NCBI RefSeq assembly: GCF_964204645.1
Contig: NC_134025.1
Span: forward strand, 12,896,001 to 12,960,000
Direction: 5' to 3'
DNA: 64,000 nucleotides
DNA from: Tubulanus polymorphus
Lineage: Eukaryota > Animalia > Nemertea
Below the pieces are notes generated by a model. The model made no database searches, was not told the DNA's origin, and saw only the letters and a program-made list of their open reading frames with translations. Of this stretch, positions 19,704 through 48,877 are shown in pieces; within the stretch, counting starts at the first letter, position 1, and every line of letters begins with the position of its first letter. Position numbers and translations under genes: made by a program.

Positions 19704-19761
19704 TAATTTTAATATATCTTCAGTAGAAAGATTTTAGCCTGGATTCTGTCATTCTGCAGAT

Positions 19762-20183: not shown

Positions 20184-20261
20184 CTGCGGATTGTCAATCA
20201 CGAGAGGTGCGGATCTGCACTTTTACCCTATTTTGCCAATGGCTATATACAAGGCGCCATA

Positions 20262-23090: not shown

Positions 23091-24119
23091 CTTCCACACT
23101 ATTTTTACCAAAAGAACATAGGCTTTGTTACCTTACCGCTGTTTCATATACAATCCATATAATATCGTTCAGCTCGCTGAGATCTACAAATAGCCCGCGT
23201 TTTTTTTCACGAATCATCGTTACAAAAGTGCTGTCGGGCTGTAAACATCGAAAATTTAGCCCCATTCACTGGGGCGACATGTTTTTCGAGTCGTCATCCC
23301 GAAATCAACCCGCAGGCCGACTGTCACTTCGATTATCAATTCAAGTATAAATGAACTTATTTATTGCCGCAGACTTCCTATTCAGTCGCGGTCTTCAAAC
23401 AGTGATTTTAACAATAGCCCATTTTCCTCATCAAATCATATTACCGATACACTGGAAATTTACTACTTTAGATTTTAAAAGCACTGTGGAGCCGTAAACA
23501 TCGACGAATCGACGTGTGTTACTACATCGACGTTCCGGGGATGAGCTGCGAGTTTCTCCTCATCATGAGAATCAAATCGAGTACAAATTAATTTATTACT
23601 ACCAGTGATTTTGCTGCGGGTTTCAAGGAGTTAGTTTAACAATACCTATTTTTCTTTACCGAATTAACCGTGTATTTACTAAGATAAATCTTTAGTGTAC
23701 CGGGGAATCGTAGGCCTAAACTAAACAGGCCGAAGAGATATGGCGGAGAAAAGCTGTTATGTCGACGAGGTATCAAAATAAAAGAATATATTACTTTATT
23801 CGGCCGCGGGCTTCAACCATTTATCAATACTCTATATTTCCTACAGTACATACCGATCATTGTCAAATGCACAAGGTATTTACTAAATACAAGTATATAA
23901 CACACTCCTATCCGTATGCTGGACTCACCCTTGACATTCGGAGTAAGCGTTCGTTGTGGGGGAAAGGAGATCGTTCGCTGTGTCGCTTGAAGTGTTTATC
24001 GAGTTTTACGCGACCTTAAGGCTTTAGTATGGTGGCTGATAAGATAAAAAAACACGAATATGCAAATGAGGGCGACATTACGACAAAACGACAAAACTAA
24101 AATAACGCGAGAAAACAAT

Positions 24120-27100
24120 GATTTTGATTTTGTCGCCCGCGACAATTCATTATTTTGGTTTTGTCACACGCGACAATTCAATATTTTGGTTTTATCGCCC
24201 GCGACAATTCATTATTTTGGTTTTATCGCTTGAGACAATTCATTATTTTGGTTTTGTCGCCCGCGAAAATTCAATATTTTGGTTTTATCGCCCACGACAA
24301 TTCACTACTTTGGTTTTATCGCCAGCGACAATTCATTATTTTGGTTTTGTCGCCCGCGACAATTCTTCTTTTTGGTTTTGTCGCCCGCGACAATTCATTA
24401 TTTTGGTTTTATATTTTGTTTTTGTCGACAATTTTTTTTTGGTTTTCTCGCCCGCGACAATTCAATATTTAGGTTTTATCGCCTGCGACAATTCAATATT
24501 TTGGTTTTATCGCCTGCGATAATTCATTATTTTGGTTTTGTTGCCCGAGACAATTCATTATTTTGGTTTTATCGCCGGCGACAATTCATTATTACGGTTT
24601 TATCGCCCGCGACAATTCATTATTTTGGTTTTATATTTTGTTTTTGTCGCCTGCGACAATTTTTTTTTGGTTTTGTCGCCCGCGACAATTCAATATTTTG
24701 GTTTTATCGCCTGCAACAATTCAATATTTTGGTTTTGTAGCCCGCGGCAGTTCAATATTTTGGTTTTGTCGCCCGCGACAATTCAATATTTTGGTTTTAT
24801 CGCCCGCGACAATTCGTTACTTTGGTTTTATCTCCAGCGACAATTCGTTATTTTGGTTTTGTCGCCCGCGACAATTCTTCTTTTTGGTTTTGTCGCCCGA
24901 GACAATTCATTATTTTTTCTTAATATTTTGTTTTTGTCGTCCGCGACAATTTTTTTTTGGTTTTGTTGCCCGCGACAATTCAATATTTTGGTTTTGTTGC
25001 CCGCGACAATTCAATATTTTGGTTTTGTCGCCCGCGATAATTCATTATTTTGGTTTTATCGCCCGCGACAATTCAATATTTTGGTTTTGTCGCCCGCGAA
25101 AAATTCAATATTTTGGTTTTATCGCCCACGACAATTCATTACTTTGGTTTTATCGCCAGCGACAATTCATTGTTTTGGTTTTGTCGTCGTGACAATTCAT
25201 TATTTTGGTTTTATATTTTGTTTTTGTCACCCGCGACAATTTTTTTTTGGTTTTCTCGCCCGTGACAATTCAATATTTTGGTTTTATCGCCTGCGACAAT
25301 TCAATATTTTGGTTTAGTCGCACGAGACAATTCATTATTTTGGTTTTATCGCCCGCAACAATTCATTATTTTGGTTTTGTCGCCCGCGACAATTCATTAT
25401 TTTGGTTTTGTCGCACGTGACAATTCAATATTTTGTTTTTGTCGCCCGAGACAATTCATTATTTTGGTTTTATCGCCCACGACAATTCATTACTTTGGTT
25501 TTATCGCCAGCAACAATTCATTATTTTGGTTTTATATTTTGTTTTTGTCGCCCGCGACAATTTTTTTTTGGTTTTGTCGCCCGCGACAATTCAATATTTT
25601 GGTTTTATCGCCCACGATAATTCATTATTTTGGTTTTGTCGCCCGAGACAATTCATTATTTTGGTTTTATCGCCCGCGACAATTTTTTTTTTGGTTTTGT
25701 CGCCCGCGACAATTCAATATTTTGGTTTTATCGCCCGCGATTATTCATTATTTTGGTTTTGTCGCCCGCAACAATTCACCATTTTGGTTTTGTCGCCCGC
25801 AACAATTCATTTTTTTGGTTATGTCGCCCGACAATTCTTATTTTGGTTTTTTCGCCCGCGACAATTCATAAGTTCGGTTTTGTCGCCCGCGACAATTCAA
25901 TATTTTGGTTTTGTCGCCCGCGACAATTCAATATTTTGGTTTTATCGCCCACGACAATTCATTACTTTGGTTTTATCTCCAGCGACAATTCATTATTTTG
26001 TATTTGTCGCCCGCGACAATTTTTTTTTGGTTTTGTTGCCCGCGACAATTCATTATTTTGGTTTAATCGCCCGCGACAATTCAATATTTTGGTTTTATCG
26101 CCCGCGATAATTCATTATTTTGGTTTTATCGCCCGCGACAATTCATTATTTTGGTTGTGTCGCCCGAGACAATTCATTATTTTGGTTTTATCACCAGCGA
26201 CAATTCATTATTTTGGTTTTATCGCCCGCGACAATTCATTATTTTGGTTTTGTCGCCCACGAAAATTCACCATTTTGGTTTTGTCCCCTGGACAATTCAC
26301 CATTTTGGTTTTGTCGCCCGCGACAATTCATTATTTTGGTTTTGTCGCCCCGACAATTCTTTTTTTGGTTTTGTCGCCCGCGACAATTCATTAGTTTGGT
26401 TTTATCTCCCGCGACAATTCAATATTTTGGTTTTATTGCCCGCGACAATTCATTACTTTGGTTTTATCTCCAGCGACAATTCATTATTTTGGTTTTGTCG
26501 CCCGCGACAATTCTTCTTTTGGTTTTGTCGCCCGCGACAAATCATTATTTTGGTTTTATCGCCCGCGACAATTCAATATTTTGGTTTTATCGTCCGCGAT
26601 AATTTTGTCCCACGAGACAATTCATTATTTTGGTTTTATCGCCCGCAACAATTCATTATTTTGGTTTTGTCGCCCGCGACAATTCGTTATTTTGGTTTTG
26701 TCGCACGTGACAATTCAATTTTTTTGTTTTTGTCGCCCGAGACAATTCATTATTTTGGTTTTATCGCCCGTGACAATTCATAGTTTGGTTTTATCGCCCC
26801 CGACAATTCATTAGTTTGGTTTTGTCGCCCGCGACAATTCTTTTTCAGTCCACTTGGCACTTAAGTCCCAGCGGGCTATTGCGTTCACTTTGCGTCCGTC
26901 CGTCCATAGACGGAATCCAGTTATTTCGGGAAGTTTTGAAGACGCTTCAAGGTAATGTCTTGATATTTGGTTTATACATGTATCTACCCTAGACACATCG
27001 TCAGCCCAAAAACTGGCCCTGTCAGATTCAAGATGGTCGACTGGCAGCCATTGTTGTTTGCCATAATCAGCACTTTTTAAACATTTTCGAAGTTTTCGTG

Positions 27101-28400
27101 GGAAATTTTGAAGATGCTTTGATTAATTACCTTGATCTTTTGTTTATATTTGAATCTACCAAAGGCCCATCAGCATAAGAAAATTGGGTCGATCTGACTC
27201 AAGATGGCCGTCCTATGACCTTTTTAGTGCCCAAAAATGTCAATTTTGGCCAGAATTCTAGGTCCTGTAGCTTCCTACTGGTTTGCCATTTCTCATTGCA
27301 ATTGCTGATGGGTACTCTTTAGAGAGGGATGTTTTATACCTGGGACAGGTATTTTGATCAGCCAATTATAACGCAATTGGCGGCCATCTTGTGTCATCAG
27401 TACTCATTCGTAGGTGGGAAAAAGTTTTTCCACATTAAATTGATACCTAAGCATATTGTGTTACTATATTCAATTGGAAAGTTGTAGCCCATAACGTGTT
27501 CTATGATTTTGGTGAGTTTCAAGGTCATTGGTTTTTGTATGTGGCCATCAGGGGGCGTTGAATAATACAATAACTTAGTATCGCTATATTATATTTGTAC
27601 CAAGGCATATTTTGTTGCCATGATCAATTGCAAAGTTGTAGTTCATGACATCGTCTATGATTGTGGTGAGTTTTTAAGGACATTAGTTATTCCATATAGT
27701 CACCAGGGGGCGTTGAATATTAGAAAAGCTTAGTTTTTCCTTATTAGACTGGTACCTAAGCATAGTTTGTTACCATGATCCATTGCAAAGTTGTAGATCA
27801 TGACATCGTCTATGATTGTGGTGAGTTTTTAAGGACATTAGTTATTACATATAGTCACCAGGGGCGTTGAATAGTAGAATGGCTTAGTATTTCCTTATTA
27901 GATTGGTACCTAGGCATATTTTGTTACTATGATCAATTGCAAAGTTGTATTTCATGACATGTACTACAATTGTGGTGAGTTTTAAGGTCATTGGGTTTTG
28001 CATATGGTCACCAGGGGCGTTGAATAGTAGAATAACTTAGTATTTCCATATTAAATTGGTAACGAGGCATATTTTGTTATCACAATCAATTACAAAATCA
28101 TAGCTGCTCACATGTTCTATGATTGTGGTGGGTTTCAAGGTCATTGGTTTTTGTATATGGTCACTAGAGGGCGTTATGTATTGAAATTGTTAGATTGTTG
28201 AGCATTTGAAACCACTTCCCAAGTGAGCATGGTGTCCCTGGACCCCTAGTTTGGTTTTGTCGCCCGCGACAATTCATTATTCTGGTTTTGTCGCACGCAA
28301 CAATTCAATATTTTGTTTTTGTCGTCCGCGACAATTCATAGTTTTGTTTTATGGCCCCCGACAATTCATTAGTTTGGTTTTGTCCCCGTGGTTTTGTCGG
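24120..28400 (+). repeat. 31-bp satellite array (consensus TTTTGGTTTTRTCGCCCGCGACAATTCAWTA), interrupted at 26847-28250
   Basis: Roughly 90 tandem units; it produces the overlapping spurious ORFs in all three + frames. Confidence 0.97.
26847..28250 (-). mobile_element. Non-autonomous Helentron/HINE-like element, copy 2, inserted in the 31-bp satellite
   Basis: Reverse-complement homolog of 6105-7353 end to end with more internal repeat units; the satellite resumes directly at 28251. Confidence 0.8.
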
Positions 28401-29519
28401 AACATTAAGTTTTTTGGTCGAACAGTGTGTTAAGGTCGTTTTGGAAATTTACTCGGTCTGGAATATTTTGGATTACTGTGTATGTCATTTGTCAGGACAT
28501 TAAACAGAAGACGACTTAGGATACTACCATGCGTGACTCCACTAGTTAGACCGTCTCATTCCAAGATGAGGCGTTCGGTTGATTTCGGTTACAAGTTTTG
28601 TCAGAGATAACTGCTGAGCCATTTGGGCGACCTATCATTGATACTGTTTCCTAATAGCCTATTTAGTAATGGCTGACGTTGAGCCTTATCAAATGCTTTG
28701 TTGAAATCCACCGTTGAACAGGATTCTAAGACTGTGCAGAAAACCTGTTATCGCTGCTTCGCAGCTATATTTATTTTTTTTTCCCTTTTCCACACAGTTT
28801 TTGTTAAAAGTGTAAAGGCTTCCTTACCTTACCGCTGTCGCCGATACAATCCGTATGATATCCTTCAGCTCACTTCAATCTCCAGATACTGCATGGGAAT
28901 TTTGATAAATCCACGTTATGAAGGCACTGTCGAGCCGTAAACATCGGAAATTTTGCTCCGTTCAATTAGTAGCCATGTTGTGTTTTCTTTCCGAAATTTC
29001 TTTCTTCTTTATGAGGAAGAGCTATCGAATTATTCCCTCTCTTCTCCACAATCAATTTCAAAGTCAATTTTATGAATTTATTGCTCAGCGGGCCGAGTCA
29101 AAGGGTTTACGAGTCCGGGGTTCGCGTGTCTGACAGGTTTACAGGCATTTGTTTGTTACCTCTTTAATATTTTTGATTTCTTGTTATTCCGGTTATTTCA
29201 TTTAAGTATATTGCTGATCAGTTCATGTAACCAAAAGCGTCAATAAACAGATTTTGTATTGATCAAGTTTAGATCAAGGTCGTTGAGTCGCGTAGGGCTA
29301 CTAGAATTATGTTCGTCTCAGAGAGAAAACAAACGACAGAAAAGTATCAGGTGATTATCGATAGCCTACTACGGTACACACAGTTGACAGTGTTAGGCCT
29401 GTGCCGGTTGGTGCGCACTGGGACTAAATATACTGGTTGGTCAGTTGGTTCAGTTGTGAAGTGTGGAAGCTAAGAAAGCCTACCAGTATTTATTTTTCTA
29501 TAGGCCTATTATAGTAGCC

Positions 29520-30100
29520 AATACCATTTTGAATACGAAGTTGTAACCCGTATGTGACTGTACGGTGATCTCCACAGGTTAACCGTACGTGAGTTCCCTA
29601 CTAACGCCGTACGTGAGTTCCTAGGCCTAGTACCCAATACCATTTTAATTACGAAGTTGTTACCGTACGTGACTGTACGGTGATATCCACAGCTTAACCC
29701 TACTAACGCCGTACGTGAGTTCCTAGTTCCAAATACTATTTTAATTACGAAGTTGTTACCGTACGTGACTGTACGGTAATATCCACAGGTTAACCGTTCG
29801 TGAGTTCCCTAAAAACGCTGTACTTGAGTTCCTATAATCTGCAAACACGCATGTTTGAAAGAATAGAGTTTGGGTTAGGTGAGGCTAGGCTATTTCTAAA
29901 TCATATTTCATCCACCCTGCAGTTACGTTCCGTGGCACAGTGGGTAAATCACTGGACTACTACTGGATTTTTTTTCGTTTGGTTTCGAATCCCTATATTG
30001 CAAGTCTGAGCATAGCGTCAACATACTCACATATGGCTAACCTGTAGAAATCACCGTACAGTCACGTACAGGTTACAACAGCGTTTTAAGTATAAAGTGA
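29520..30100. mobile_element. MITE-like element with triplicated left TIR, TTAGG-like tract and tRNA-like segment
   Basis: Three direct copies of ..GTGACTGTACGGTGATNTCCACAGGTTAACC.. (29520-29810) and one inverted copy (~30025-30090). Confidence 0.7.
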
Positions 30101-33100
30101 GTACGACAAGCCTACCATGCCTATGTACTACAAACGCAACTTTTTCCCTCTCGTCGGCCCTACAGTGATGTTACTATAACTGGTGCCATTATAACATGGA
30201 TAGGATTAGGTCAGGACTAGCCTAAAGTCTAATTCAGTCTATGTACTAATTCACTCGATAGGCCTATTTCTAAAACAATACAGTGAAGTAACATGCAGAA
30301 AGGCTAATTGATTTGAGCCATGTGATTAAATTTGGCCAGGCCTTCTCTGACCTGCTGACATTAATAGTCAAACCAAAATGTTCATGTGGTCACGGCTTGT
30401 ATACCAAAAATCATTGTAGGCCTGTACATTTTGCTGTTTATAGGTTTGGTATACCGATTTCTCCATTCTTGACTGATAAGTGTACGGTACAGCTGTACAC
30501 ATTATACAATTGTTCCAATGGGAATAGGGCCTAACGTTCATTCAAATATCCAACATTGGTGAAAGTTTGATTACAGTATACGTGTACTGTAGGTTTTCAT
30601 GTTGTATGAATATTTTGCAGTTCAAATGGGAATGATGCTGATTCCAATGTCAAACGCAAGAAGTTAGATGGTCAAGGACAGTCAACACCAATGAAGATAT
30701 CTCTCTTCGACCGATGTTGCACCATAGAAGATCTGATTCTTTCAACTCAAGGAAAGTGATTCAACACGATCGACATAACACTGGAATAGGTTTGCAGTAA
30801 CTAACTGTTCATTTCATTTAGTCCTATGTACTTCTTAGCCAATTTGGATTTGATTGTTATTGAAACTCTGGAACTGTTAACAAAAGACAAGTAAGACAAG
30901 TTGAAAAAACACAAGTTATGCTTGATTCTCATGTTCAAATTTAATTCAAATTCAAATTTATTTTATTACATCATATTTACAAAGCATATCATTGGTTCAT
31001 ACAGTAATAAAAATTAGGACAGAACAAATATTATTACAGAATTTCCAAAAAGGCAATGAATTTCTATAACTAAATGAACATTATTTTTCTAATAACTCAG
31101 ATCAAGAGTGACTCTCCCGTTTATTAGGAAACACACACAACTAGTGGAATAGGTTTGATTTACACACATGTTGCAGGTATCAATTGTTTATCACTATAGA
31201 ATTTGTAATCCATAAAAGCCAAAATCAACATCAGGTGGAAACTCAGACCAAATCAATTCATAATTTATTGATTGAATCTACACTACAATATGTATTTATT
31301 CAAATATTTCAATAAAAACATTAACTTCTTAAATCTATTCTAAATCATAATACGTTCTTATCTGTAAATTTACTCAATCTATCGACTCAGCAGGTGCTTA
31401 AGATGAGTTCTTAATAGGACAGATCCATTTTTAAGCATGGTGATAATACAGTATCATGATGTTTGAATGCCAAAATAAATGCCTGGTCAAATAAATTAAT
31501 ATTTGTTGATTGTACGTCCGCGTATGTTCGGTTTCAAAGCTGTATCATATTTGACGTTTACACAGTGGTTGCATATTAGGTTCGAATCTGTCAATGCATT
31601 TTATTCTATGTATCGATATTTCAATTTACTACAATTCCCATCATTCTGAATGGCTTTGCAGAAAACCCGTCATCACTGCTTAGCAGCTATATTTTATAAT
31701 TCATTTTCTTGTTAGGCTAATATACACTTCCATACACCATGCATTTCAAAGCACCAATGGGTTCCAGTTCATTGTCCATTGTTATTCTGGATTCTGCTTA
31801 AAGAAAACTGGGCTACATACTTCGAACAAGGGAAGCTATTTCAACACCTTTCCGCTCTGATTTTTATGTAATAGCCTATGTACTTCTAAAGACATACACC
31901 TAACTTTACTTCAACATATAAATCCTTGCTCACTAGGAATAGTTGTGTACTAGACCTAATGCAGACAAGTTTTTTTCTTGGATGGAGCTGGGCTTAACTC
32001 GATATTCCTGATATATTTCTGATTAATCAAGCCAGTGCTTAATTTGATGAAAGCACCAATAATGAAAATGTTATTGCTTTTTGCCATTTTAATTGGATTG
32101 AAGTCTGATTAATCAGAAATAGATCTCCGTAGACGTTTTCATTAAAGCTTGATAGTGAGGAGCGCTCTGCGAATGAAATGTACTTCGTTCAGCAATCAAC
32201 TCATTTGTGCCATTATGATCGGTTGCAGACATTTAAAGGACAGACTCCTTATCGATTCTGCCGTCAGGGTCTGCCTAGTTCCGATAGTCGGCACGATTAT
32301 TCATCACGGTTCATCGTTGATGCGGACAGGTTTTTGGTCACGTCACACGGCTCGATTGACCGCTTCCATTGGCGGAGGCCGGTCCATAGAGAATATGGAA
32401 ATATTCCATTCCATACGATGAGGCATAATCCGTTTCCAGTCAATGTCTATGATGGAACTCATCATGATAGAGAGCAATATTTTAGAGAAGCGTGTTTTTT
32501 AGAATACACCGCAGGAGGTATTCCTAACAATATTTTTTTTTTGTTCTTTTGTATTTTTGCATTCTATAAAAAGAACTGTGGTTGGCAATCCTATACCAAC
32601 TAATATCTGTTTTGCGTATATAGAGCGACTTGTAAGTCCACCTTTCGGCTGGGTGCAGGTTAATGTAATTGACCCGCATTATATGTATTTATATTGCACG
32701 TGTCTCTAACTATAAAGATGTAGGTTCAAAATGCGTAGCAAAAAAGTAAGAATATCATTTGATTCATATGACACAATTTTTCAGTCAGGCCTGAAAACTA
32801 AGGCTATGTACGCATGTATTCGGATTGCGAACTCCAGGGGACCAGAAAATATGTTCCTTTTAGCCCATAATTTGTTATACACGGTATGAAATGATTTAAA
32901 TTTGGGATGAAATTTTTGGTTTGTAATAACTGATGAATGATTATATCTGAGGTGGTTATAACTAGGTTCAATTGCAGTAGTCCCTTATGTTTTGGTGACC
33001 CAAGTCTACTCTTTCAACTCATTCTGTTATTTCGATTAAGACTTGATTATTATTCCGTCGAGATCACGAACCGAAGCATTGGCAAACAGCTTGGCAAAAT

Positions 33101-33163
33101 AACATTATATATGCCAAATTAGTATCAATATGTTAAGGACCTAAATGGTTCTCATCTTTTCAG

Positions 33164-36100
33164 AACACGATGTCCGTGATGAAGATTTCGGAAATTATAG
33201 CTATAACAGAGGTGGTAGCTGGAGTTCATGGAGAGGAACAGGACGTAAGAGCCAAGGTTATCGTGGAGGCAACCGCCGAAGCAGCGGGGGATACCGGGGT
33301 GGAGCCAGAGGCGGCTACAAGAAAGATAAAGGTAAGCTTAGGATCAAGAAGTCTTCTGATAAAAAGTGATGTTCATTTTGTTGGTAGTTTTTGTATCTAA
33401 TCTACATACAATGCGTTTAAACATAGGCCGATTTGTCATAATTTCATTTAAAAAGACTTTAAAAAAAAGATTTTCAACAATTGACGCAAACGAAATTCAG
33501 GGATCAGTTTCAAATTAGTTAGGTGCAGATTGTGGAGGTAGTACATTTTGAAATAAACTTATGAATAGTGAGCTTGAATGAATTCGTGTGATTTTTACCA
33601 AAAAAAATTATATTCTTTGTTATGGACTTTCGATTTTCATAAAAACTTCTTGATTCAATCAAGGGGGGACATCTTAGGCTTTTTTGATTACTTGGAGCAA
33701 GGATTCTCTGAAATTCTGCCAAAAACTTCGTGCCGAAGATAGGTATGCGTTTCCATTCATAATTTGAAAAAAGAAATTAAAAAAAAAATATTTTCGTCCA
33801 TATTTTCGATCTGATTGTCTGTAAAAGGTCAGTTTTCTCCCATCATTTGAATTCAATCCAATAGAGTTTTCTCTCTTTTTGATTTGTTCTACTTAATCTC
33901 TAGAGTATCAATGCTGGATTAAACATACACTTGTGTAAATTTAGGAAAGTCCATATAAGAATTATATTTCATGTTTTTTTTCATAAGTTACTATAGCCAA
34001 AAATAACTATAGAGTCAAAACTAATACTTAAGTATACGGCTTGAAAGCTCAAAACAAACATGATGAATATGTTTATGTACAGTTTTACTTGGCTTTATTC
34101 TATCAATTTATGGAGTAAAATGGTCTTTGTAGTCAGGGATGAGCATTCCCCGTGGATTTCGGTATTGAAAAATATCAATTTTCCAAATAGTCCAAAAATG
34201 ATGTAAAAGTATGGGGGGGTGGTGATCATCTCATTCAATTGGTCTGGCGCGATCGGTAATCAGGTGAACCGTAAAAGCGTTCAGAGCCTGTTTTACTTAT
34301 CGTTACGTAAAAGCATTTCAATGCATATTCACTGCAACACAGTGATTTTGTATCTACATATGTACTACGATGAGTGTGTATGTATTTTATCGATCGGTTG
34401 CAGACACGCGCGTGCGGCTACAGTAGTAATGTACATAGGCCTACTTACTGTTGCCGCGCGTGTGTGGCGAACGCCTTCAGAAATTATACACTACTGGGTG
34501 ATGATTTTTAGTGAGCATTCATCGACGCATTTTTACTGCAATAATTCAGGGCTTGACCCGTAATGCATGAGATGCTGAATGTCATCGAATGAGGATGTAC
34601 CACATTGGAACTGGCCATTACCTTCCAAAATATAATAGTCGTTTATGGGTTCAAGATCGCTCTAAGTGCTCGGAAAACGCATTTAATTTCTAAAATTTTC
34701 TTGGGGGAGGGCCCTAACCCCCCGAAATAGCTTCGCGCCTTCGGCGCTCGCTAGTGCTGACGGCTATGCCGTCAGCTGGTTCGCGTGTGCAACTCAAGAA
34801 AAAAAAACCCGCGGATTTTACAGGTCGGCGTTCTCATCCCTGGTAGTACCTCTTGAAATTCCACTGACAGGTTTTCAAATTGCAGGAGTGAATCCTCTGT
34901 CGAGACTAGATGACGATGAAGATGTTGATATGGTTGGAACCGGAGGGCCTGAAACATCGCGTCAACGTTATAACCCTTACAGTAAAGGGGGACGTCGTGG
35001 TACCAGTTCTAATCGAGGCAGAATTAATGATTCAGGTATGGAATGTCTACATTTTAAACAAAGCTTTGCTTCCTGTAAACGGTATTTTACTTGCTCCGTT
35101 GAATGATATTTTTCAATGTATAAAAACAGTATGATATTCTCACCATCCGTTATGGGAACATGCAAATATATATATATAGAGGTAGCCTACGGCCCAGGGT
35201 GCTGTGCATCAAGCATGCACTAGAGGGACAGAATCTTTTTCCCACTACAACCAAGCTTTTCGTATCTAGACCTTTCCACAATCATACCAAGGCCGCACTA
35301 AATATACTTACCGAATATTTGCAGGGTGAGAATAGCATAAAAAAGGGTTATGCATTAATTTTCTTCCACCATCTGTAGACATAATCAAGTTTATTTTTGG
35401 GAGATTATTGAAAACAACTGGAGATAAAAATTTGGTCTGATCGGAATCAAATTGGCCGCCATCGATATATGCCAAAATTAGTACTATTTACACATTGTTG
35501 GTATCGGAAATATTGCAGGCACATCAACTATTTCTTGAGGTTTTTATATGTAGGCCTATATTAATCACCCTAGGGTCCATAAGCTAAGATAAATCGAGTA
35601 GATAGCTATCATCGTGCTGTAGTATTCTTGCACACATCGCAATGATATTATAATATTGTAGTCAAGTAATTCACTCTGATAAATTTGACACACTTCTCAG
35701 AAGCCATGTGTGAAGCTGAAAAAAATCCATTTTAGGCCCGAAGCTTCTTTATGTTTTCCATAAATAACATTGAAATTTAAGAAGATACATTTTGAAAAGA
35801 CATCTTAAAAATATCAGATTTGTTTTTTTTTTTCAATTAGTTAAATTTTGTGCATATATGTCCCTGGAACCCTTAAATGTTTCATGTACAGTTACCGTGT
35901 TAATTTTGCTTGGATTTTCAGTTACTAAAAGATTAGGAATGCCATTTCGAGATACTAGAGGTGGGAGGCGGGGCGGGCGCGGCAGCAGGTCTGGAGGCAA
36001 CTACAACAGTGGACCCAATGCGTGGTACAGAATTGTGGTAAGTAACTGGTGAATCAACATATTTGAGTTGTATAATTAAGGTCATGCATGGGCGTCCCCA

Positions 36101-39100
36101 GGATTTTTTTTCGGGCAGTTCGATTTTAGGAGGTCTGAGGTCCTCCCACAGAAAATTTTTGAAAATTCCTGCAAGCAGGCACATTCTGGTGCAATCAGAG
36201 GCCGAAAGGTAGGTAGGCTACCATTTACTTTGCATGTATCGATTCTATTTTCCTAATTTAGCAAATGCAGAACATGTGCCCACATTCGTCGTCGTTTGAA
36301 AATTCAAACTACTGAACCCCCCTAGGGACGTCCATGATATGTTCTAGTTTAATATTGTTATGGTAGTGTTCTGGAATAAGATTGAGGTTAATCGCTCGGT
36401 GCCCCAGTGACATACATGTATGTCTCAATTTCGGTAAATTCTATGATGACACTGGATGTACACCTAATATCATGTATTAACTGTGCCTTATTTCCAGTTG
36501 CGATCTGGGATAAAAAAAGGAAAAATACGGCAGGCTTTACCTCCCTCATAGGGCATGGGTAGTAATGCCAATGTCAGGATATAACCATTGTGACTGCTGT
36601 TTATACCCTTGAGAAATAATGACATGTAATTCATGGATATCTGAATATAGATTACAAGTTGATATGTTCTAATTAAAGATACCATATGGACGAAAAGCTG
36701 ACAAGGATTTCATCCTCAAAAACATCACTAAGCTTTCAGATTTGCCATTTGTTCCACACCAGGTAACCATATAATTGAATTTTCAATCGACTTTTTGTTG
36801 TTAATAATCAATCGGAAATTGTTTCTCTAATGATGATCATCTATCTATTACAGTTTCACTTCGAAAACAATAATGCAGTTTTCTTAGTTCAAGATACTCG
36901 GGTCGCACAAGCTATCCGCTCAGTCAATAAACGCATCACCATGCCTAATGGTTTTAAGGTATTGATTTGAGATATTATACCTTGTTTTCTGTAGAATTAG
37001 GGCCTGTACTAGTATTTATTTTTCGACATCTTATAAAGTACTGTTTGATATAGCGGCATGGCAGGTGTCATGCTAGGGCTGGATTGCAACTGGTAAACGG
37101 ACATCGTTCAAATCAGGGATAATCCGACCCAAAGAAATTTTACAAATTAAATACATTCCAAGTGATTGTGAAATCCAACTGAGATATAATATATAATATA
37201 TTTTATTTCCACTAAATATTATAATATATCATTATACATTATAAAAATGAAGTGAAATGAAATATTTTAATATTAAGCAGGGGAGACTTGAAGAAGCCGG
37301 TTAATGTCAAACGAGCAACTTATGTCAAACGAACAGTCAGTCCCCCAACAACGGGGACTATATATATATATCAGTCCATATATAATTGAATAATTTATTG
37401 GATGGGGCATTGGATGCCTAGTTAGTTTGAGAGCAAGTTAGAGCAAAATATGCATATTGAATAAGGTTCTTAATTTCATTTTAGAAAAGCTAATAGCAAT
37501 TTACCTCTGGTATCCAAAAATTCAACATTCAATAGGTGTTAAATGTTTATACATTATCAGATTATTCAACACCTAGAGATGGTGATAAGTTTTAGTCTAC
37601 TTATCTTGTGATGATTATAGCAGAATTTGACAGTGACATCAGATTACGTTTTTGTTTGTTTGCAGATGATAATTACAATGCAGGAAACTTCACCTCCAAA
37701 CCCGCCACTGGATGATGACACAGTAGAGAAATTAAAGGTACGTAATCTATTTTGAATGCGACACCTTTTCACTGAAACTGAACAAAGATATTTTACCTCA
37801 CACTCTGTCATTGTCAAATGGACCAGGCATTCTGTAGCCTACTCATTTAAAAATGTTCTTGGTACAATTGCTGAGATTTATTTGAATACTCAATATTGAT
37901 TTGGATTAACTTCAACAGATTTCCTCGTGAATATATGTATATCTTATCGTAACTGATTCATTGGCCTTATGAATGTGGAAACAATCGTATATATCCATAA
38001 TATATATTTTGTATATAAGAGAAAGTGCACACTCTGTCTCATGTCCGTTTGAATATTCCTGTTATTATTATCATTGAGGTATTCATTGTCGACTGTTAGC
38101 TTCCAAGTAGGATGAATGTTCTTCTACAATTTGAAAGTTTATTCATCTTTTGTTGTAGCTCTGCATGAGTAATCGTTATGATCCACAAACTAAGTCACTT
38201 AACTTATCAAGTCTGGCCACTGATGAAGGTAAGCGACGAAATTTTCATCATTTCAGGGGTTAACGATCTCTACTCATAGCACTGAAAGAGTTGTATGAAT
38301 AATATTTTCAGAGTTGTCGAAGGAAAAGATTTTCCTGCCATTGTCTCGAGTAACTGTGTTCGATAAAGTTGTGGCCATAGTCGAGGAGTTTATTCCAGAA
38401 GTATGTGAAATAACTTTTTTAGAATTTCATTTTCAGCTCCAGCAAGCAATTGCCATTTCTATTTAATAACTAAATGTAAAGGAGCTTGCTTATATAGATA
38501 ACTGCATAAAACGTTTGAAAGTTTGTGTTGCAACCTACGCTGTCTGTAAATTATAGATCATATGCTCTCAAGATTTTACTTTCTGAGAATAGTCATCCAA
38601 ATGATACTTTAGTATAGGCATATAGCTGCATTATGTGACAACCTATGATTGGCCTGATAGGAAAAATATCACTGATTAGCCTCAAATTTATTTAGCCACT
38701 CAATCCTGCTTCATTTTACAGCAGTGCCATGTTTTATGACATGGTAGCAAGAGTATACAATAGTGAAAATTCAGACATTCTCTAAAGCTGCAAAAGGATG
38801 AGATACCTTGAAAAGTGTGAAGTGATAAGAAAGTAACTCCTTCTACTGTATAAAGATTTAGCTTACATAAATTTCACATTAATGTACCACTTATGTTCCC
38901 TTTGTTTGTAGTGTTCTATGCTATGATTTTAATCATCCCAAATGATTAATTTTTTTCATTGAATTTTTCAATTGTTTTTAAGGTGGAGTCGATTGACCTG
39001 TCTGAAAACAAATTGTACAATCTACTGTCGGCATCAAAATTAAGCAAAATGAAGAATTTGAAGAAACTCAATCTGTCAAAAAATGTGGTATGTAGCTAGT

Positions 39101-42100
39101 ATTCACGGATAAGTGAATTAGTACTCACGGTCTGAGATGTTGTTGATAATTTCAATGTTGTCATGATAAAATTTTAGCTGCGAACTGAACGAGAATTGGA
39201 TAAGATTAAAGAACTTAAACTGGATGATTTGACGCTCGATGGTAATCCGATGTGCGACGAGTTCAAGGAAAGATCGGCCTATATTAGGTAACTCCTGTTA
39301 TTACTCCAATCACAGTGCAGTGATGGTAGTACCAGTTACAGATGCTGTCAAAACAAAATTAAATCTCTCGTACAGTCACTGCAGAAACCTGATTGTTGAA
39401 TAGCTTTTTTGGGCTCTGCACAGCAGCGTAAATTTTGCTTTCTTCAGCGTTAAATAGTAGTCAAATTTTTTTTAAGCCAAAAATAACGATGGTTACTCGA
39501 TTCACTGAAAAGATTCATTCCCTCCTTTTGAACCTATAAGGCAGTCTTTTGAATTGGTAAAATTGGTGTGAAATCTGAGAAATGTTTATAATTATTTATT
39601 CATAGATCAATAGATGATTGAGAAGAAAATCAAGTGTAATTTTGCGGCACCAGTCAATCACCAGGTTGTCTTGTCCACTGATCATGTCACTAATGATGTT
39701 CTGCAGTCAGCACTGAATTTATTCATTATTGGCCATTATTGCACACATTCTGTATCATATATGATTATTTAAGCCACTACTACCCTTCACTCATATATTT
39801 ACTGATCAAAGGAAAACTTAGTTCACACCGTATCTAGGAAGCTGAATAAAACCTTTCCCAATACATCCTTGAGCGATGGGAATCGAACCCAATGGAAAAT
39901 GCTTTCAGAGAATAACCACACCAAAACTCACGATACACAGATTTAAAGAAAAAGAACGTGGAAATTTTGTTCAAGTTTAGATTTGTATATGCTAGATTTT
40001 TAAATTCATGTATAGAAATTTCCTATTTGTATTGCCATAATTCATGCTTGCTCTGTCAGTGGCGTTTGTTTCGTCGTGTTCTCGAGGCATTAATCAAGAA
40101 TGATGAACATGGCACAGATTCGTGACACGTGCCGATGACGGGTAAGTCTTCCAGAAGGGGAGCAACCTAAGACAGACACGTGATCAGATCTGTTCGTAGT
40201 ATCTCAATCCCTGCCACTTTCATATCATAAGATAATGAGGTACTAGACGGCGCAGGTGAGATTAATTGGATTGAACGATGCCCACGCAGCAGCAAGTTTT
40301 TAATTCCTCATCAGTTTAGGATCAAATTTGTTTTAAAAGCTTTTTTGGGGTCAAATTGCTTTGGATGATGAGATTTCAGAGAATTATAAACCATTACACC
40401 ATTAACCTAAAAACATTTGGATATTTCAAAATTCCTTGGTAGTGTAAATTTCACAAACTAGAGCTTTGTGATAATTGTGGACATCTATCCTGTGTGTTTT
40501 CCTTGGTCTACAGGATGCATCTGATAAAACTTTTCATCATGATCTATTATATTTCTCTGGTTATTATCGAAATGAAGTAATTTCATAGATATCTGTTTAT
40601 TTGTTTTTCGTGGGAAACAAGACAGCTTTATTATCATAATGAGGAATGAAATATTAATTTCAGAAAGAAATCGAGTTCTATTGCCAAAATCTATAAACAT
40701 TTTTGAGCCTATTTTTGTCATAATGGCTTTTGCAAAGTAGATTTTTTGGGTTACATACACGTGATATGTCTGTACAATATAGCAATGTATTGTTCTGCTC
40801 TTGGGAGTCAAGAAGGTAATTCTTAGGACTGTCAGTTCATTGATGGTTTCAAAGAACTGACTTATTCAATTTGCAGACTCCTAGCAGAGGTGAGTAAATG
40901 TCCTATGATGTTTATACTAATTTAGCATATCACCTCATTGCTGATGTAATCTCTTTGATGCTGTATCGTGATGTATTTAGCTTAGCATTTTCTGTGCATC
41001 AAAATGTTTTCTTTTTCAGTGCTGTTCGAAGCAGGTTTCCCAAAGTCTTGAAATTGGTATGTTTCTTCCTTTTTAAATACATGTATACTTATTGAAATGA
41101 ATTTATTGTATTATTGAACCGTATATGATTGATATACCAATTCTGCTATGATTCGTTTTTAGGATGGACTTGATTTGCCACCGCCTATTAAATTTGATAT
41201 TCCTACGTCGACTGAGTTACCTAAAACGCTTGGCAGCCATTTTCCAAATGATGAAGTTAAGAATTTGCTCATACAGTTCATGGAACAGTACGTTTTTGCA
41301 CATGCTCAGCCTTTTACCTTGCGCATACCTTAGGCCATCCCAAAATAATGGTCTGTTTGCCGTAACCCGACCGACCCAACTTCAAAGGTACCGAGTGAAA
41401 GGTTCTATCTACCTACCGACACCCTGAAAACTTGAGTCGGTGGTATGGCAAACAGACAATTGAGCTTGGGATGGCCTTAGCAAAAATTGTCTTAAAAGAT
41501 TTGATTCATTATCTATAAGTGCAAGTGAATATCACGTCATTCATGCAGTGGACTATCTTTGTTTGACAGCTGAAATATTTCCCTGCAATTTTTTAGTCAC
41601 GATTACCATTCAGGCTTAAAGAATTACTTAGGTTTCAGGGCAATTAAATTTCTTTTGATTCAAAATTCAACTGCTTTTTAACTTCCTGAGAATCCACAAA
41701 TGCAGCTCACGTTTATAGTGATCTCTTTGTAATGTTAAGCTGAAAAGAATTTAATATATGTAACTTCTATGATGTAGTAAAATTCCCATTGCAACAAAAC
41801 CTACATTTCAACTTATAATTGTTGTTGAATTTCAGATATTACCAGCTTTATGATTCAGATGATCGACAGGGACTCCTCGAGGCCTATCATGACCAGGCTA
41901 TGTTCAGCTTGAATGCATCATACCATAGTCTCGATAGTAAAGATTCTTCAAGGTAAACACTACATCGCTTAATCCACAAAATGGCAGAACCTCATTTTTA
42001 GGAAATCTTTTAGGACCACGAGAAAGGGATCTTTAGAATATTATACTTTTTGACCACTCAATTTTTACTAAAGCCTTAAACTCATCTGTCCTAATACATA

Positions 42101-45100
42101 GGTGTCGCTCCATAGATGTCCTAATGTCATAAACTCATGAAGCTGATTTCAATGAAATTTTTGTATGTTTCCTTGTACACCATTTAGACCAGAAAATGTT
42201 AAAGGCAGAAAATGTTATCGCTGCTTTGCAGCTACATTTGAAAAGTACTGATTAAAGCCATTAATTTGAATCGTCCATCACCGATTCATACGCAGCACTG
42301 CAGTGTCGACACACTGAAAGGGTTTATAGTGGATTTCTTTCCAACTTCATTAGGGCTTGTTTAAGATATCTTACACCCTGAAACTGGCATTGCAGTGGAG
42401 TTTGCATTACATAGGTGGTACAGCCAGGGCTTTCAAAATGATTTGAAATACCAGTGGCAGACAAAGAAATAGCACTTGCAAATTTTTTCCCGACCACTGG
42501 CACATTGCTTGTTCTCACGGAAATATTTAATTATCTTGAGGTTACGAAAGCTTATTCATTGAAAATTTCATGGACATTCTTAAAACAGATTCTCTGTCTA
42601 TAAAAGCACAATAATAGTGATAAAAGCCAGGAATCAGGAATAGCGTATACATGAAATTGCATATTTTCATTTTTAGAAATATCAAATTAATTGATTTGCT
42701 AGTGTAAGTGACTGCAGTAATGGCAATGAGTAACTGTTGATTGGTTAAGCAGCCAGCTTAAAGGGCAAATGCCATCAAAATTGTACTTTCCGCGATTTCT
42801 TAACCAGAAGAAACTTTAGTATACTTATAACGACCTTAGATGTGACTTATTGAAAAAGGAGCACGAATTAGCCGTAATAGTTATCTATTTATCCTTCACT
42901 CCATGCGTATAGTTCATATTCAACCCGCGGGTGGCGCTATTTATGATGTTAACGATGACAATCAACACAAGCACATGTGCCCGCTATTACGCGTAGCCTA
43001 TGTATAATCGATAAAATAAACACCATTTGTTCACCGTATTCACTGACCTACAGTGCTACTCACTTATATATGATTATCATGGCATATACAACAGTAGCAA
43101 CACTTACAATGGCAAGAGTTTATTTATTCAAATCACTCCTAAAACGATAAAATACCGCATGAAATGTCTAGTGAAATGACTGGAAGCGGCGAGCGTTTGT
43201 CAGAGATGATGTCAGAAACACGCACCTGCGAACATAAACAATAACAGTGACCACGTGCTGAAATTGTTGATTTGAAAGTGATATTTCTCAGTAATGGCTG
43301 AACTAAAATTCAAACCAGTTCCATATTTGATATTTGTGAATACATCACATTTGAAAATGAATTTTACACAATATTCTATTTTGATGGCATTTGCCCTTTA
43401 AGAACACATTAATGCTACTGGCTACCCAAACTAATTGTCTCTGCGAGTGTCTTTGTGAGTTCACCGAACAAAGTTTTCACCTTGTGCATATGAAATAGGC
43501 CTATGTCTAATAGTCTTGATAATAAGATCCTGAGCATCAACGATGTGTTCAAAATTAAACAATTCATCTAATATACACTACTCCTTAAACACCGGCAGTT
43601 GTTTAGAAGGCAGCCAATTTTTCCTGGAAACTTAAACTAGGCCACGCGTCTGAGGCACATTTTCACACGATGCACACTGACTACAGTACATTTAAATATA
43701 ACCACTGATCACAGCTATTATACTATCATTGACATCAGACGAGATATTTCATAGCTGTCACAGGATTCTTACTAACAGTCAGATGCGACGGCCGACAGCT
43801 TATTTTGAAAGCCCAGACAGTGTCTTAAGTTGTTGGAACTTCCTCAGTGTATTAGTTATAGAAATCAGATTTAACTTAAAAGCTAATGAGCGCACTCAGA
43901 AAGTGATAGTCCCCAGTAGTATTTAAGGTAGAAATGTATTGAGTTTATCAAGCTGTATGCACTTTCAATCACGTGTATGAGTAGAAAACCAGCATTTTCA
44001 TGGTGTGAAAAAAATGTTGAGCAAAGTTCTGCATTACTCCTTGTTGCAAAACTTGTTACTACATCTCTACGCAATAGTTACATCTATGATATTGATTTTT
44101 GTATGTTTTTTTTTGCAGACGCTCGACAGTATTAAATGACTACATGCCAGAAAGCCGGAATTTACTTAAAATTACCGATGGTGGTAAGTTTGTTACTTTC
44201 CTGTCAATGCATAATCTATATGACTAGCAATTGGTCTAATGTTGCCTGACTCGACAACAACTCAACAATGACCTGTTGCCGCCAAAACACCAAACGCCAT
44301 CGAGCAAAGTGGCAGCACTCAATGGGTTGACTAACCCGGTTACATATATCCATCGCAGATACCAAAAAAGCTATCCAAAAAAGCTGGTTGATCAAATTCA
44401 AGATTGACTGACGCTATGATCAATTTTCTCTATATTTCGTATGTAGGGCCTATATGTATCCCCTGGGCCTACCATCATCTGGTGACTTAACTAACTGTAG
44501 ATGGTCTAATGATCAATGAAAATGGCTTACCATCAAGCATCGAGACATTGGACGAGACTCTTTGAAGATAGCTCAATTCATTGGGTAATTTAATTAGCAT
44601 TTAGTTTGTATTTGAAAATAAAGTATAAATGTTTGTTTTTAAATTTTGCAGCACGACGACAAAAGTCATTACGTATCGGCAAATTGAATGTTGTTGCGTT
44701 GATGTGTCAGCTTCCAAAAACACAACATGATCCAAATACGATTAATGTGGATGTTAGTGTTGTCACTGTAAGTGAATTGTCATACATAGAAATCTTCTCT
44801 GATAAATGGGGAAAAGGTGATGTGGTTATCTGACGAACTTGGGAGGGGTGAAATGGGAATAAATGGGTTTGTCGAATGGCTGAGGACTAAGTTCAGTAAA
44901 TGTAATACCAATTTGGTTCAGTATAGCAGTGCGAATAGTGGCACAGTAAAGAGCCAGTCAGATTACAGTTTAGTTAATTTACGCTTACACTCATAATTTG
45001 GCCTGTTCCCATTTATGCACTTTTCCAAACCATTCTTGTGGTTGTTTCAAGGACAAAGGTCAAAGGGGCAAAATTGAATTGGAGCTCTACTAAAGGGTGG

Positions 45101-46917
45101 TGATGTGATGAATAGTAAAAAATTGGTAATATGACGAATAGAAAAGAAGTGGGGGAAAGGGGTGCCAAAATGAGAAGATACCAACTGGTGTCTTGACCTT
45201 TATTCACCTTTTTATCTTGAAAAGTAGTGTTTGTTGTGCTGAATTCAAATTGTATTGCAAAGTTATTGTACATTAATTTGTTCATGCAGCTTTAGCTTAT
45301 TTTTCATATTACCAGTACAGTACCTTATATGTTTTTACATTTTTAGTCTACCATGATGGTATTTACAATAACTGGTGTTTTCAAAGAAAGTAAGTGCCGA
45401 TTTTTCATTTCCAGTATTATTTTGCATGCATTAACAAATGTTCAGTTTAGCCTACATGTATTACCAAAAATACATAAAGAGGAATCAAATCCTCTTAATG
45501 TATTTTTGGTATTACTTAGCTATTATCATACCTTTCAGCTACTTTTAGAAGTTTTATTTGGTACAATCCTTTACATCATCACAGAATATAAATGAAATAT
45601 ATATAGATATTTCATATATTGCATTTTTTTCCATGGAGTCTTGGCAGGAATTCCTTAATTGTCTTGTGGGTGACCTCTTAGAAAAGCGAATGATAAATGA
45701 TGATAGAACTTTTCTGGTATAAAGAAAGCTTTCAAAGATTTGGCAGTGCCTGGAAATGAATGGCATTTTCAAATAAATTAATTTTTTTTTAAATTTGGGG
45801 GACCCCTAGTAAGGGCGTCATCCCTCAAGTGTTTGCATCATTGAACTGATTATCATTGTCAATAAGAACCCAACATTTTTGAGGCGCCCTATTAGTAGAG
45901 CACTTACCATTTTAAGAGTCTAAGCCATGAATCGAGGAGGCCATCACCAAAAATGCTAATATTCATCGCAAAATTCATGTATTTAGGAATTCAAAAAATC
46001 TTGGCAGTCAACAATTATATTTGTTTTTTATTTTTTAATGTTACACACTTAAGCATTTTGAAATATATTCATGTAAACCATATTAATGAATTAATGTTTT
46101 TTATGGTACATTGCAGCTGAAAATCCTGACAGAATCCGTGCATTTAGTAGGACCTTTGTTACAGTTCCGCAAGGAAGTGGGTATGTCAAAGATTTTCAGC
46201 CTTTTACTTGTTTTAAAACATAGCTTTAAGCAAAGATGGCTTAAGTGGTCTGTCATATAGAATATGGTTGTGTGCAATAGGTGATGATAGTGGTATTGCT
46301 AGTATTTGGATTGGGGTTTAGGAGCATAAATGCTTAACTCAAGATGTGTCTCGACTGAAAAGCAAATTTTGGTAATCACATTTGATAGACTACCAGTTTG
46401 TGTGGACTAAGTGAAATTTAATGCAAGCTATAAGCCGCAATCACACGATTTGGCCCGGGCCAAATTGGCACGGATCAGGCTCGGGCCAAATTTGCAATCC
46501 AGTTATTGATAATCTTAGTTTGCAATTTTTTAACACCTTGGTGCATGCACATATTGAAACTGAGTAGTCGATTGCTGCTTAGTTATGTAATTTCACAAAA
46601 CTCTTTGTAAATTATTGAAGGACCAGTTATTGCTGACCCTGGTTGAACTTTGTCGTTTCAGGATTGTTATCATCAATGAACAGTTATCCATCTTTAATGC
46701 GAGCATCGGATTAAAAAAAGTGAGTTATTTCACATTTTTGTGTACAGATACATAGAGAATAGACTGATACATAGAGAATAGACTAATGCCTGATGCGCTG
46801 AAGTTGGAACTTGAGAAATTAAAATGTCAAAATAAATTGAATAGATATTGTGTAAATGTTAAAACCTTTGAAGAACAGATTGATGTCAACCAAGACATTA
46901 TTATATTATTATTATTA

Positions 46918-46984
<67 letters not shown>

Positions 46985-48877
46985 AAAATAAAATATTATT
47001 AAAAAGAAATAGATATTATTATATTAAGACATGCATTTGATTAGCTGCACCTACTAAGTAGCTGCAGCGATTAATATACCATATTGGAAAAACACATGAC
47101 TGAAAAAATCTAATACATGTATACACATTTGACTAGTTTTCAGCCATTAAGTACATGCATGAATCGTAGAGGAGCGGTGTGGTAAGAGCGTCCGGCTCTG
47201 GGAAGCCAGGTCTTGGGTTCGAACCCCGTACATTACCGTAGTGTCCCCGGGCAAGACACTTATCCTCATTACCTCTCTCCACCTAGGAGTAAATGGGTAC
47301 CTGGCCTGATAGATGAGTGCTTGTTAGTAGCTCATATGTTCTACTCCCCATGGAGAGATGACTGATACATGTTAGTGTATTTAACAGCTGGGGTGATAAT
47401 ACCGAATGTAAAGCGATCTGAGCAGCTTCGCTGCATTTAGCGCTTTATTAGACAATTGTCGTGACAAGATTTTTCATTTGCGAAAATTGCAAATTCTCAA
47501 AATTACAAACATCTTACCAAAGCCCTGGTGGAAAAAACTGCCATTTTATTTTTTGAATAGCACACCTCTAGACCCCATCTAAGAAATAGAAATAACACCA
47601 TATTTAGTTAGGGGTTAATCACTCATGCAATTTTCAGTTGATAACAATTCTTGCAAATCTGCAGTTGTTCTTTGGGTTTGCGTAACAGAAGGTTTGTTCT
47701 TTTTTGAGTTGATAATCCATTGATTTTGAAAACGGCAAAAAGGGGTTCAAAGGATGTGTTAGCATTGAAATAAAATAATACTAACTCATTTCTCTGCTTA
47801 TTTTTGTAGAAATCATTCCAAACGAACACAGCGCCGACCCCATCACCCAGTCCACAGCCATCTCCAACCGTAGTATCATCACAAACTACTGACCAGCAGG
47901 CTGAAATGGTGCGATCGTTTTCACAACAGTCTGGTATGAATGCAGACTTCTCCATGAAGTAAGTTCATCAATCATCACAGTTCATCTTAATCATGAATGA
48001 ATCAGTAAATCATGAAAGAAAGAATTGCTTGCAAATACTTCCTAATGAAGGTCTAGTCCCTAAATCAGTAGAAGGCTGTGTTGTGTAGTTATTGGATGGA
48101 CGTTATGATAAGTCCACACTTATAGTTTTTCCAGATAAGGAATATCTGGCTTAACCGCTTCATTTGATAAACCTGTCCCAAGAATTTTGCACTCAATTTG
48201 TGTTACTGACCTACAATATTTGAATTCTTTGCAGATGTTTGATGCAGAATGACTGGGATTATGAAAAATCGGCAAAAGTGTTTTCTGATTTACATGTAAG
48301 TTCTGGTTATATGTGCATTGTCTGTGGCTCTACCTCAGATAAGTTTTTTCCCTTTGTGCTTTTGTACTACCAGTAGATCTAGGAGGGGGTTTTCGGCTGC
48401 CCATTGATTTGAAAAAGTAATCATCAAAAGCTACAAATTTGACACCCATTCTCTCACAAATTTTATTTTTGAATTTGTAGCACAGAGGGGAACCCCCTTC
48501 GGCGTCATTGTTTTACTCAAGGAATCCCCCTTCCTTTTCTTATGGACAGCTCGGCCTCTTTTCCAATTGTATAAGATATCCCCCGAAGTCAAAACCTTAT
48601 GATAGAACAAGTAGCAAACCTTGACAGAACAGACAGAAGCATTGCCATTCCCTTGTTTTTCTCACACGTGATGTCATAGTTCGTATGCCCGTCAGTGTTG
48701 TAGACTTGCCATACATAACAACAAAAGATAATATGGTCATTTACAAATTTCGGATATATAAAAGCGCATGTCTGCACGGTGTCCATATATAAATCCCAAG
48801 TAGTTAAGCGATGTCTTTTTTTATCGTCAATTTTGCAGAGTAAAGGTGCCATACCTCCGGAAGCATTCGTCAAGTGA
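33164..48877 (+). CDS. NXF1: Nuclear RNA export factor 1 (TAP/Mex67 family), multi-exon; 5'-most coding exon(s) unresolved
   Basis: GT-AG exons in consistent phase: 33164-33331, 34886-35035, 35922-36037, 36679-36762, 36854-36958, 37666-37737, 38159-38228, 38312-38400, 38983-39087, 39178-39287, 41020-41056, 41163-41287, 41836-41952, 44119-44183, 44652-44767, 45347-45389, 46117-46180, 46662-46719, 47810-47958, 48235-48295, 48839-48877 (TGA). Translation gives an RG-rich N-terminus with RYNPY (PY-NLS-like), RRM ([14 protein letters not shown]), LRR ([52 protein letters not shown]), NTF2-like domain ([25 protein letters not shown]; [12 protein letters not shown]; IINEQL) and UBA/TAP-C ([36 protein letters not shown]). 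Confidence 0.97.
36087..36335. mobile_element. MITE (CATGGGCGTCCC termini), related copy at ~53073-53339 in the opposite orientation
   Basis: Shared TIRs and internal sequence (TTCTGGTGCAATCAGAGGCC..CTTTGCATG vs its reverse complement at 53190-53245). Confidence 0.7.
39288..41019 (+). other. NXF1 cassette intron, positional ortholog of vertebrate intron 10 / Drosophila sbr retained intron
   Basis: Lies between an exon of exactly 110 nt (39178-39287) and one of exactly 37 nt (41020-41056), the conserved arrangement around the retained intron of animal nxf1 genes. Retention itself cannot be seen in DNA. Confidence 0.9.
40114..40193 (+). promoter_or_regulatory. Constitutive transport element (CTE)-like cis-acting RNA hairpin, single NXF1-binding loop
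   Basis: CCGATGACGGGTAAG (40132-40146) ... CAACCTAAGACAG (40163-40175) matches the two strands of the MPMV/SRV CTE internal loop as I recall it (CCAATGACGGGTAAG ... AACCTAAGACAGG). Closing helices: GGGT 40140-43/ACCT 40165-68, CACGTG 40126-31/40177-82, TGA 40123-25/TCA 40184-86, ACAGAT 40114-19/ATCTGT 40188-93; apical CTTCC/GGGAG stem. Confidence 0.9.
42762..43397. mobile_element. Kolobok-like MITE in an NXF1 intron
   Basis: TTAA|AGGGCAAATGCCATCAAAA ... TTTTGATGGCATTTGCCCT|TTAA; internal part is homologous (inverted) to ~3490-3585. Confidence 0.85.
46897..46984. repeat. (TTA)n microsatellite
   Basis: Directly visible. Confidence 0.97.
47169..47450 (+). mobile_element. tRNA-derived SINE with L2-like 3' tail
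   Basis: A-box-like GGTGTGGTAAGAGC, B box GGTTCGAACCC, body GGGCAAGACACTT..GTAAATGGGTACC, tail GTAAAGCG..GAG..AGCGCTTTAT. Confidence 0.8.

Follow-up and report, generated by a model that had tools for sequence, protein, structure and literature searches.

An intron of the gene for NXF1, the chief mRNA-export protein, in Tubulanus polymorphus, a palaeonemertean and therefore a protostome, carries a predicted hairpin that is very likely a homologue of the constitutive transport element (CTE), an RNA export hairpin found in vertebrates and in retroviruses of monkeys. The hairpin is probably part of a self-regulating device in NXF1 that dates to the common ancestor of the worm and vertebrates. 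The cellular CTE is described from the retained intron 10 of NXF1 in human, more than 30 mammals, zebrafish and coelacanth (PMC4338338, PMC5170612), and BLAST found none in birds, reptiles, C. elegans or Drosophila (PMC4338338). What is new here is a protostome member of the cellular NXF1 CTE, the published range stopping at fish (PMC4338338). No invertebrate NXF1 CTE was found in the literature searched, a body that leaves most subscription journals outside it.

The NXF1 gene and its intron

The window, i.e. the whole 64-kb stretch of DNA analysed, includes an NXF1-like gene. Twenty exons joined from 34886 to 48876 yield 590 stop-free codons that are identical to residues 77-666 of protein P0001, which NCBI and UniRef label as NXF1-like isoform X2 of Tubulanus polymorphus. 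Pfam assigns to P0001 the domains RRM (160-238), LRR (250-390), NTF2 (425-575) and TAP_C (616-664), and its match to the human NXF1 chain 6e5u_A has an E-value of 5e-137. Judged by its sequence, the gene is predicted to encode the NXF1/TAP export receptor. The first intron of the isoform X2 transcript is about 17 kb long; near 24100-26800 it includes an extended, degenerate tandem repeat. High-depth interspersed repeats occur in neighbouring introns at 41330-41475, 42430-43750, 46445-46494 and 47170-47350, some of them with terminal inverted ends. Outside the gene, an open frame at 53429-53752 resembles a metalloprotease of the astacin type, over its prodomain and the beginning of what follows. 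No tRNA genes were found.

A sequence-only reading of this DNA had singled out an intron between exons of exactly 110 and 37 nt, with a predicted read-through end ..SAYIR*; its coordinates are exact, and read-through does end in ..ERSAYIR* (Table 1). In a protein alignment, the junction I375|S376 of P0001 coincides with I338|S339 of human NXF1. Human sNxf1 has 356 residues, 18 of which are intron-encoded (PMC5170612), hence the human intron 10 junction follows residue 338 (356-18=338). The alignment thus points to homology in position between the cassette intron and human intron 10. By count it is intron 11, because two further coding exons lie upstream of the 20-exon chain.

Table 1. Features of the NXF1 gene, the cassette intron and the predicted RNA structures (positions in the window)
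Feature	Position	Strand	Evidence or remark
NXF1 (TAP) coding span, predicted	15945..48877	+	tblastn of P0001/P0002 N-termini, exon chain, Pfam
Alternative first coding exons	15945-16001 (isoform X2), 32418-32516 (isoform X1)	+	tblastn, P0001/P0002 N-termini
110-nt exon, phase-2 end inside Ser376 codon (human Ser339 by alignment)	39178..39287	+	AG at 5' edge, GTAACT donor
1732-nt intron, vertebrate intron 10 position, unspliced copy in run X3	39288..41019	+	
Read-through TAA, intron nt 2-4	39289..39291	+	10 exon junctions downstream
CTE-type hairpin, single-loop form, predicted	40114..40193	+	predicted fold, flank swap, pair table
Internal loop 5' strand; first base G vs A in published CTE	40134..40139	+	
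Donor-like site within hairpin, GT at 40142, 8/9 textbook consensus	40139..40147	+	run X3 contig unbroken, no branch
Internal loop 3' strand, AAGACA, conserved NXF1-binding word	40169..40174	+	PMC4330393
Second stable predicted structure, no L020 counterpart	40800..40885	+	donor-like GTs 40816, 40890
37-nt exon, codes for LRR domain end; AG at 5' edge, GTATGT donor	41020..41056	+	Pfam; run X3 joint 41055/41162

The same reading had proposed that this intron is equivalent to vertebrate intron 10 and that its retention could yield a short NXF1. This proposal gains support from the CTE hairpin, its conservation in a second gene and a contig of the retained intron, all described below, but the grounds originally cited for it are weak. 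The immediate stop was rejected as evidence: it results from phase 2 combined with a GTAA donor, any such intron stops in this way, and three of the five phase-2 introns of the gene do so (39288, 41953 and 47959). All 19 introns of the gene reach a read-through stop within 204 nt. The human form also differs, its 18 intron-encoded residues preceding the stop (PMC5170612). Exon sizes were likewise rejected as the sign of a special cassette, since five of the seven internal exons compared with the second gene are equal in size.

The lack of a recognisable MITE in the intron had been read as compatible with constraint. We found no notable repeats inside 39288-41019, and no piece of it recurs elsewhere in the 64-kb window. 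The depth of the DNA-like sequencing run X1 is 32-33 in four bins of this intron, compared with values in the thousands for several others. However, introns 37738-38158, 44768-45346 and 45390-46116 are just as flat in run X1, so that the absence of repeats lends little weight to constraint. Weak splice sites were considered as a cause of retention and rejected: the donor scores 7/9, mid-range for the gene, and the acceptor is pyrimidine-rich.

The hairpin and its relatives

The predicted hairpin contains a lower stem, a 6x6 internal loop, a 4-bp helix, an AA/A loop, a G-C pair, a one-base bulge and a 5-bp apical stem. It lies mid-intron, around nucleotides 843-888 of 1732. Its folding energy of -26 kcal/mol (z -2.74) was matched by three of 200 shuffled sequences, and it ranks fourth in stability among the 331 80-nt windows of the intron. 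Three of the first four pairs of the closing stem are formed, the exception being the C40132 x A40176 mismatch, and the apical stem is fully paired (5/5). When random stretches taken from the same record replaced the flanks of the hairpin, equal stability was reached in four of 1000 trials. Rfam models gave no matches to 39000-41300 at E-values up to 1. The loop word AAGACA has been linked to NXF1-NXT1 binding (PMC4330393), and an embedded donor-like site is also described for vertebrate CTEs in the Discussion of PMC4338338. A cryptic exon ending at 40141 was rejected, as the run X3 contig is continuous across this point. The predicted fold has several features of an intron-10 CTE: an AAGACA 6x6 loop with the conserved helix, paired stems and a donor-like site beside the loop.

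A second stable structure is predicted at 40800-40895 (z -3.46, matched by two of 200 shuffles), chosen as the best of the 331 windows. The donor-like site at 40816 lies in its small loop, and the other is at 40890.

A scan of a viral collection found two loci (L001 and L002). The core strands of the worm hairpin, 40131-40146 and 40163-40177, agree with L002 in 15 of their 16 and 14 of their 15 bases, respectively (29 of 31 in total). Positions 90-255 of L002 correspond in sequence to the retroviral CTE given in bioRxiv 10.1101/2020.03.20.000869. The window differs from this published CTE in two ways: the first loop base is G instead of A, and the second closing pair is C40132 x A40176. The contigs of runs X1 and X3 have no alternative letter at either position. 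The motif pattern has one match in the window and none in 100 shuffles, and a looser 20-base pattern has two matches in 596 billion prokaryotic bases, both lacking the G-C pair above the helix; these counts are rarity checks rather than blind tests, because the window and the viral loci themselves supplied the patterns.

A scan of metagenomes for the hairpin gave 19 loci. One of them, L020, is an NXF1 gene with eight exons in order and 44% protein identity to P0001. It has a 110-nt exon, a 1868-nt intron and a following exon that starts SAIRK, and its hairpin lies at intron nucleotides 902-949. A comparison of the two introns gives the hairpin as their sole significant match (83% identity across 48 nt, E 3e-7), and no flank-swap trial out of 1000 reached its stability. 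Read-through in L020 adds one hybrid residue (Arg) before the stop, as in the window. The best protein matches of L020 are to Mytilus, Owenia, Lingula and Tubulanus, at 194-200 bits, with vertebrates reaching up to 191, and in a 37-row tree it falls within none of the starred clades (vertebrates, insects, corals and sea urchins), its position being otherwise unsettled. From its sequence, L020 appears to be a second non-vertebrate NXF1 gene with the same cassette and hairpin. Two more donor-like sites (GT 3474 and 3525) follow directly behind the true donor of the CTE intron of L020, within 3456-3530.

A full CTE-type hairpin is also present in L011 (553-628, minus strand), a 2.4-kb AT-rich contig without NXF1 exons; equal stability was reached there in 61 of 1000 flank-swap trials. 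This contig is possibly the middle part of a longer intron from a third animal. No NXF1 match was found in 16 other metagenome loci (L003-L010, L012-L017, L019 and L021). Their CTE-like hairpins, mostly single and doubled in L006 and L013, fall into a few recurring families, and we read these loci as putative retroelement copies.

The window shares an identical helix, AA/A loop, G-C pair and bulge with L020, with L011 and with the viral outer loop (L001/L002). The apical 5-bp stem is paired at all five positions in each of these, with four different sequences. Three further candidates (L018, L022 and L023) were rejected as CTE copies by their pairing: only one, one and four of the five apical pairs are formed, all three lack the G-C pair, and they are regarded as chance matches. 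Pairing is kept although the stem sequences differ, and the stems covary.

Intron retention and the predicted short protein

Four sequencing runs of one study (X1-X4) cover the stretch, all as contigs; the kind of run is unrecorded and none is listed as RNA. Run X3 has at least three GT..AG joints at exon ends among the joints listed. These are missing from X1, X2 and X4, and X3 therefore contains spliced RNA. No spliced joints are among the rows listed for X2 and X4, and both runs were left out. In X3, a single 1790-nt contig (39258-41047) spans the whole intron at a depth of 15.2; it comes from one run, as contigs only, which carry no information on strand or cell fraction and for which depth says little about abundance. 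The 31-mers specific to the retained form span exactly the same interval, and the contig of the DNA-like run X1 continues through both of its ends. The intron is thus present unspliced beside a spliced branch. The spliced branch is deduced from the contig ends, since the exon-to-exon joint of the cassette intron is not among the X3 joints listed (63 more lie beyond the list).

Some unspliced pre-mRNA is present in the X3 library, since contigs of the run also include pieces of three other introns, among them the 3' half of 46720-47809. Where X3 bins cover other introns sparsely or not at all, they were excluded as evidence. We consider it likely, with considerable confidence, that the cassette intron is retained in steady-state RNA. 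The piece of intron 46720-47809 is a contig of about 569 nt (47272-47839, depth 19.8) that ends at the exact point of merging with the spliced form; retention there would drop only the UBA domain.

By analogy with the vertebrate system, part of the NXF1 pre-mRNA would escape splicing of 39288-41019, and NXF1-NXT1 could bind the AAGACA internal loop without adaptors. [quoted passage not shown] How much full-length product is made relative to the short one would thereby track the amount of NXF1. On the same analogy, NXF1 probably binds and exports the intron-retaining RNA, and we lean towards the complete vertebrate-like route of partial retention, NXF1-NXT1 binding, export and translation of a short NXF1.

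The predicted short protein has 376 aa from the isoform X2 start or 390 aa from the isoform X1 start. It had been expected to comprise the RRM-LRR half of NXF1. The predicted end at residue 376 lies inside the LRR domain, which extends to 390, so the product would be an incomplete RNA-binding half. An isoform of 376 or 390 aa is absent from the 90 homologues listed and from the two-member cluster of P0001; this is weak evidence against it, because annotation drops such RNAs. The coral protein P0091, the one of the 90 listed that ends within 80 residues of the codon, was rejected as a short isoform since it reads through the junction. A C-terminal peptide of the 18-residue, intron-encoded type is absent from both the window and L020, where a single hybrid Arg precedes the stop. 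A stable short protein with a role of its own is conceivable, and we hold to it only tentatively.

Alternative explanations, related systems and origin

A true ancient CTE could also act in feedback by loss: NXF1 binding and the donor-like sites would keep the intron unspliced, and the RNA would be either detained in the nucleus or exported and then degraded by NMD. The stop upstream of 10 junctions, the cut within the LRR domain with one new residue, the short isoform missing among the listed proteins and the lack of conservation of the protein tail are all in line with this, and mouse intron 10 is classed as a detained intron in PMC5963917. The cassette intron also has four donor-like sites scoring 8/9 against one in the other 18 introns (p 0.002, with the threshold chosen post hoc), but the excess disappears at a threshold of 7/9 (4 of 19, p 0.28). 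Moreover, the mammalian counterpart RNA is exported and translated despite being a candidate for NMD (PMC5170612), and we consider regulation by loss, the strongest of the alternatives, rather unlikely.

A working CTE might also have arisen separately in this lineage, either because evolution converged on the RNA that NXF1 binds best or because a mobile element inserted there. Of the 19 metagenome loci, 16 have similar hairpins but no NXF1 match, and in two of these the loops are in tandem, so mobile DNA may carry the motif around. BLAST searches that found no CTE in Drosophila, C. elegans, birds and reptiles (PMC4338338) speak for a separate origin as well. Yet the intron is shared with vertebrates, and both the intron and the mid-intron place of the hairpin are shared by two distant non-vertebrate genes. 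Features beyond the loop are kept (the donor-like site, the AA/A loop and the bulge), the window has no second copy, run X1 depth is flat over the hairpin, and loss in flies and nematodes is simpler. A separate origin is therefore very improbable. Equally, the hairpin might be a decaying relic in a slow-splicing intron, with the unspliced contig representing ordinary pre-mRNA. One broken closing pair, one changed loop base, the X3 contigs from other introns and the rank of only fourth among 331 windows could be taken in this sense. However, 29 of 31 core bases are kept in an intron whose remainder has no detectable likeness to that of L020, one contig bridges the intron end to end, and the splice sites are not unusually weak for the gene. 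The shared position and the covariation of the stems are hard to reconcile with either a relic or a separate origin, and we hold a relic to be very improbable as well. In the preferred reading, protostomes and deuterostomes most likely both owe the element to their last common ancestor.

The worm element resembles the vertebrate NXF1 CTE in that it lies in the same gene and, judged by the codon, at the same intron position, forms a single-loop hairpin with a donor-like site inside it, and leaves a premature stop in the retained RNA; the introns are of similar length (1732 nt in the worm and 1801 nt in human). It differs in its protostome host, in having 29 nt between the loop strands against 30 in human (numbering of the Fig. 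1 legend) and in its immediate stop compared with one after 18 residues. The hairpin is central in the worm intron, whereas in vertebrates it is nearer to the donor. The core identity given above is measured against the viral CTE, not against the human 53-nt core. With the retroviral CTE the worm hairpin shares, besides the 29 of 31 core bases, the AAGACA 6x6 loop, the GGGU/ACCU helix, the AA/A loop, the G-C pair, the bulge and a 5-bp stem. In contrast to it, the worm hairpin has one loop instead of two, other stem sequences, one broken closing pair and a cellular intron as host; the two-loop symmetry of type D is absent, with one match in the window and two in L002.

Among protostomes, the transcript of Drosophila sbr (Dm nxf1) is said by Mamon and Golubkova to use the same 110/37 cassette. 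A comparable transcript that keeps an intron is produced from this gene and is plentiful in heads (PMC8151460), but no CTE was found in Drosophila by BLAST (PMC4338338), and binding of SBR to the intron-containing sbr transcript is stated to be unknown (PMC8151460). Intronic non-coding sequence that can be aligned from vertebrates to protostomes is uncommon: Frith and Ni (2023, PMC10735318) list 25 regulatory DNA segments at developmental genes that are conserved across bilaterians. The worm element is similarly a short non-coding piece whose place is kept between vertebrates and protostomes; unlike those segments, it is a structured RNA with a protein partner known in vertebrates. The string 'nxf' is absent from the main text of PMC10735318.

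The presence of the CTE in a protostome points to an origin in the bilaterian ancestor. We see about an even chance that it is a pan-bilaterian RNA switch. On this reading the ancestor already used the hairpin to export its own intron-retaining NXF1 mRNA and produced a short NXF1 from it; the hairpin later disappeared from flies and nematodes, in which the intron is still retained. The element would then be among the most ancient intronic RNA elements of animals with a conserved sequence, and the viral CTE would have come from it late, by doubling. The distant copies reveal the key bases, as the loop, the helix and the donor-like site are fixed and the stems covary. The unconserved tail of the short protein bears on whether selection keeps the RNA switch or the short protein. 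Taken together, the protostome copy, the second non-vertebrate copy and the signs of retention would shift the origin of the CTE to the bilaterian ancestor. This ancestor lived more than half a billion years ago, and an origin there is far outside the host range of retroviruses. Such an origin would strengthen the view that the virus acquired the CTE from the cell.
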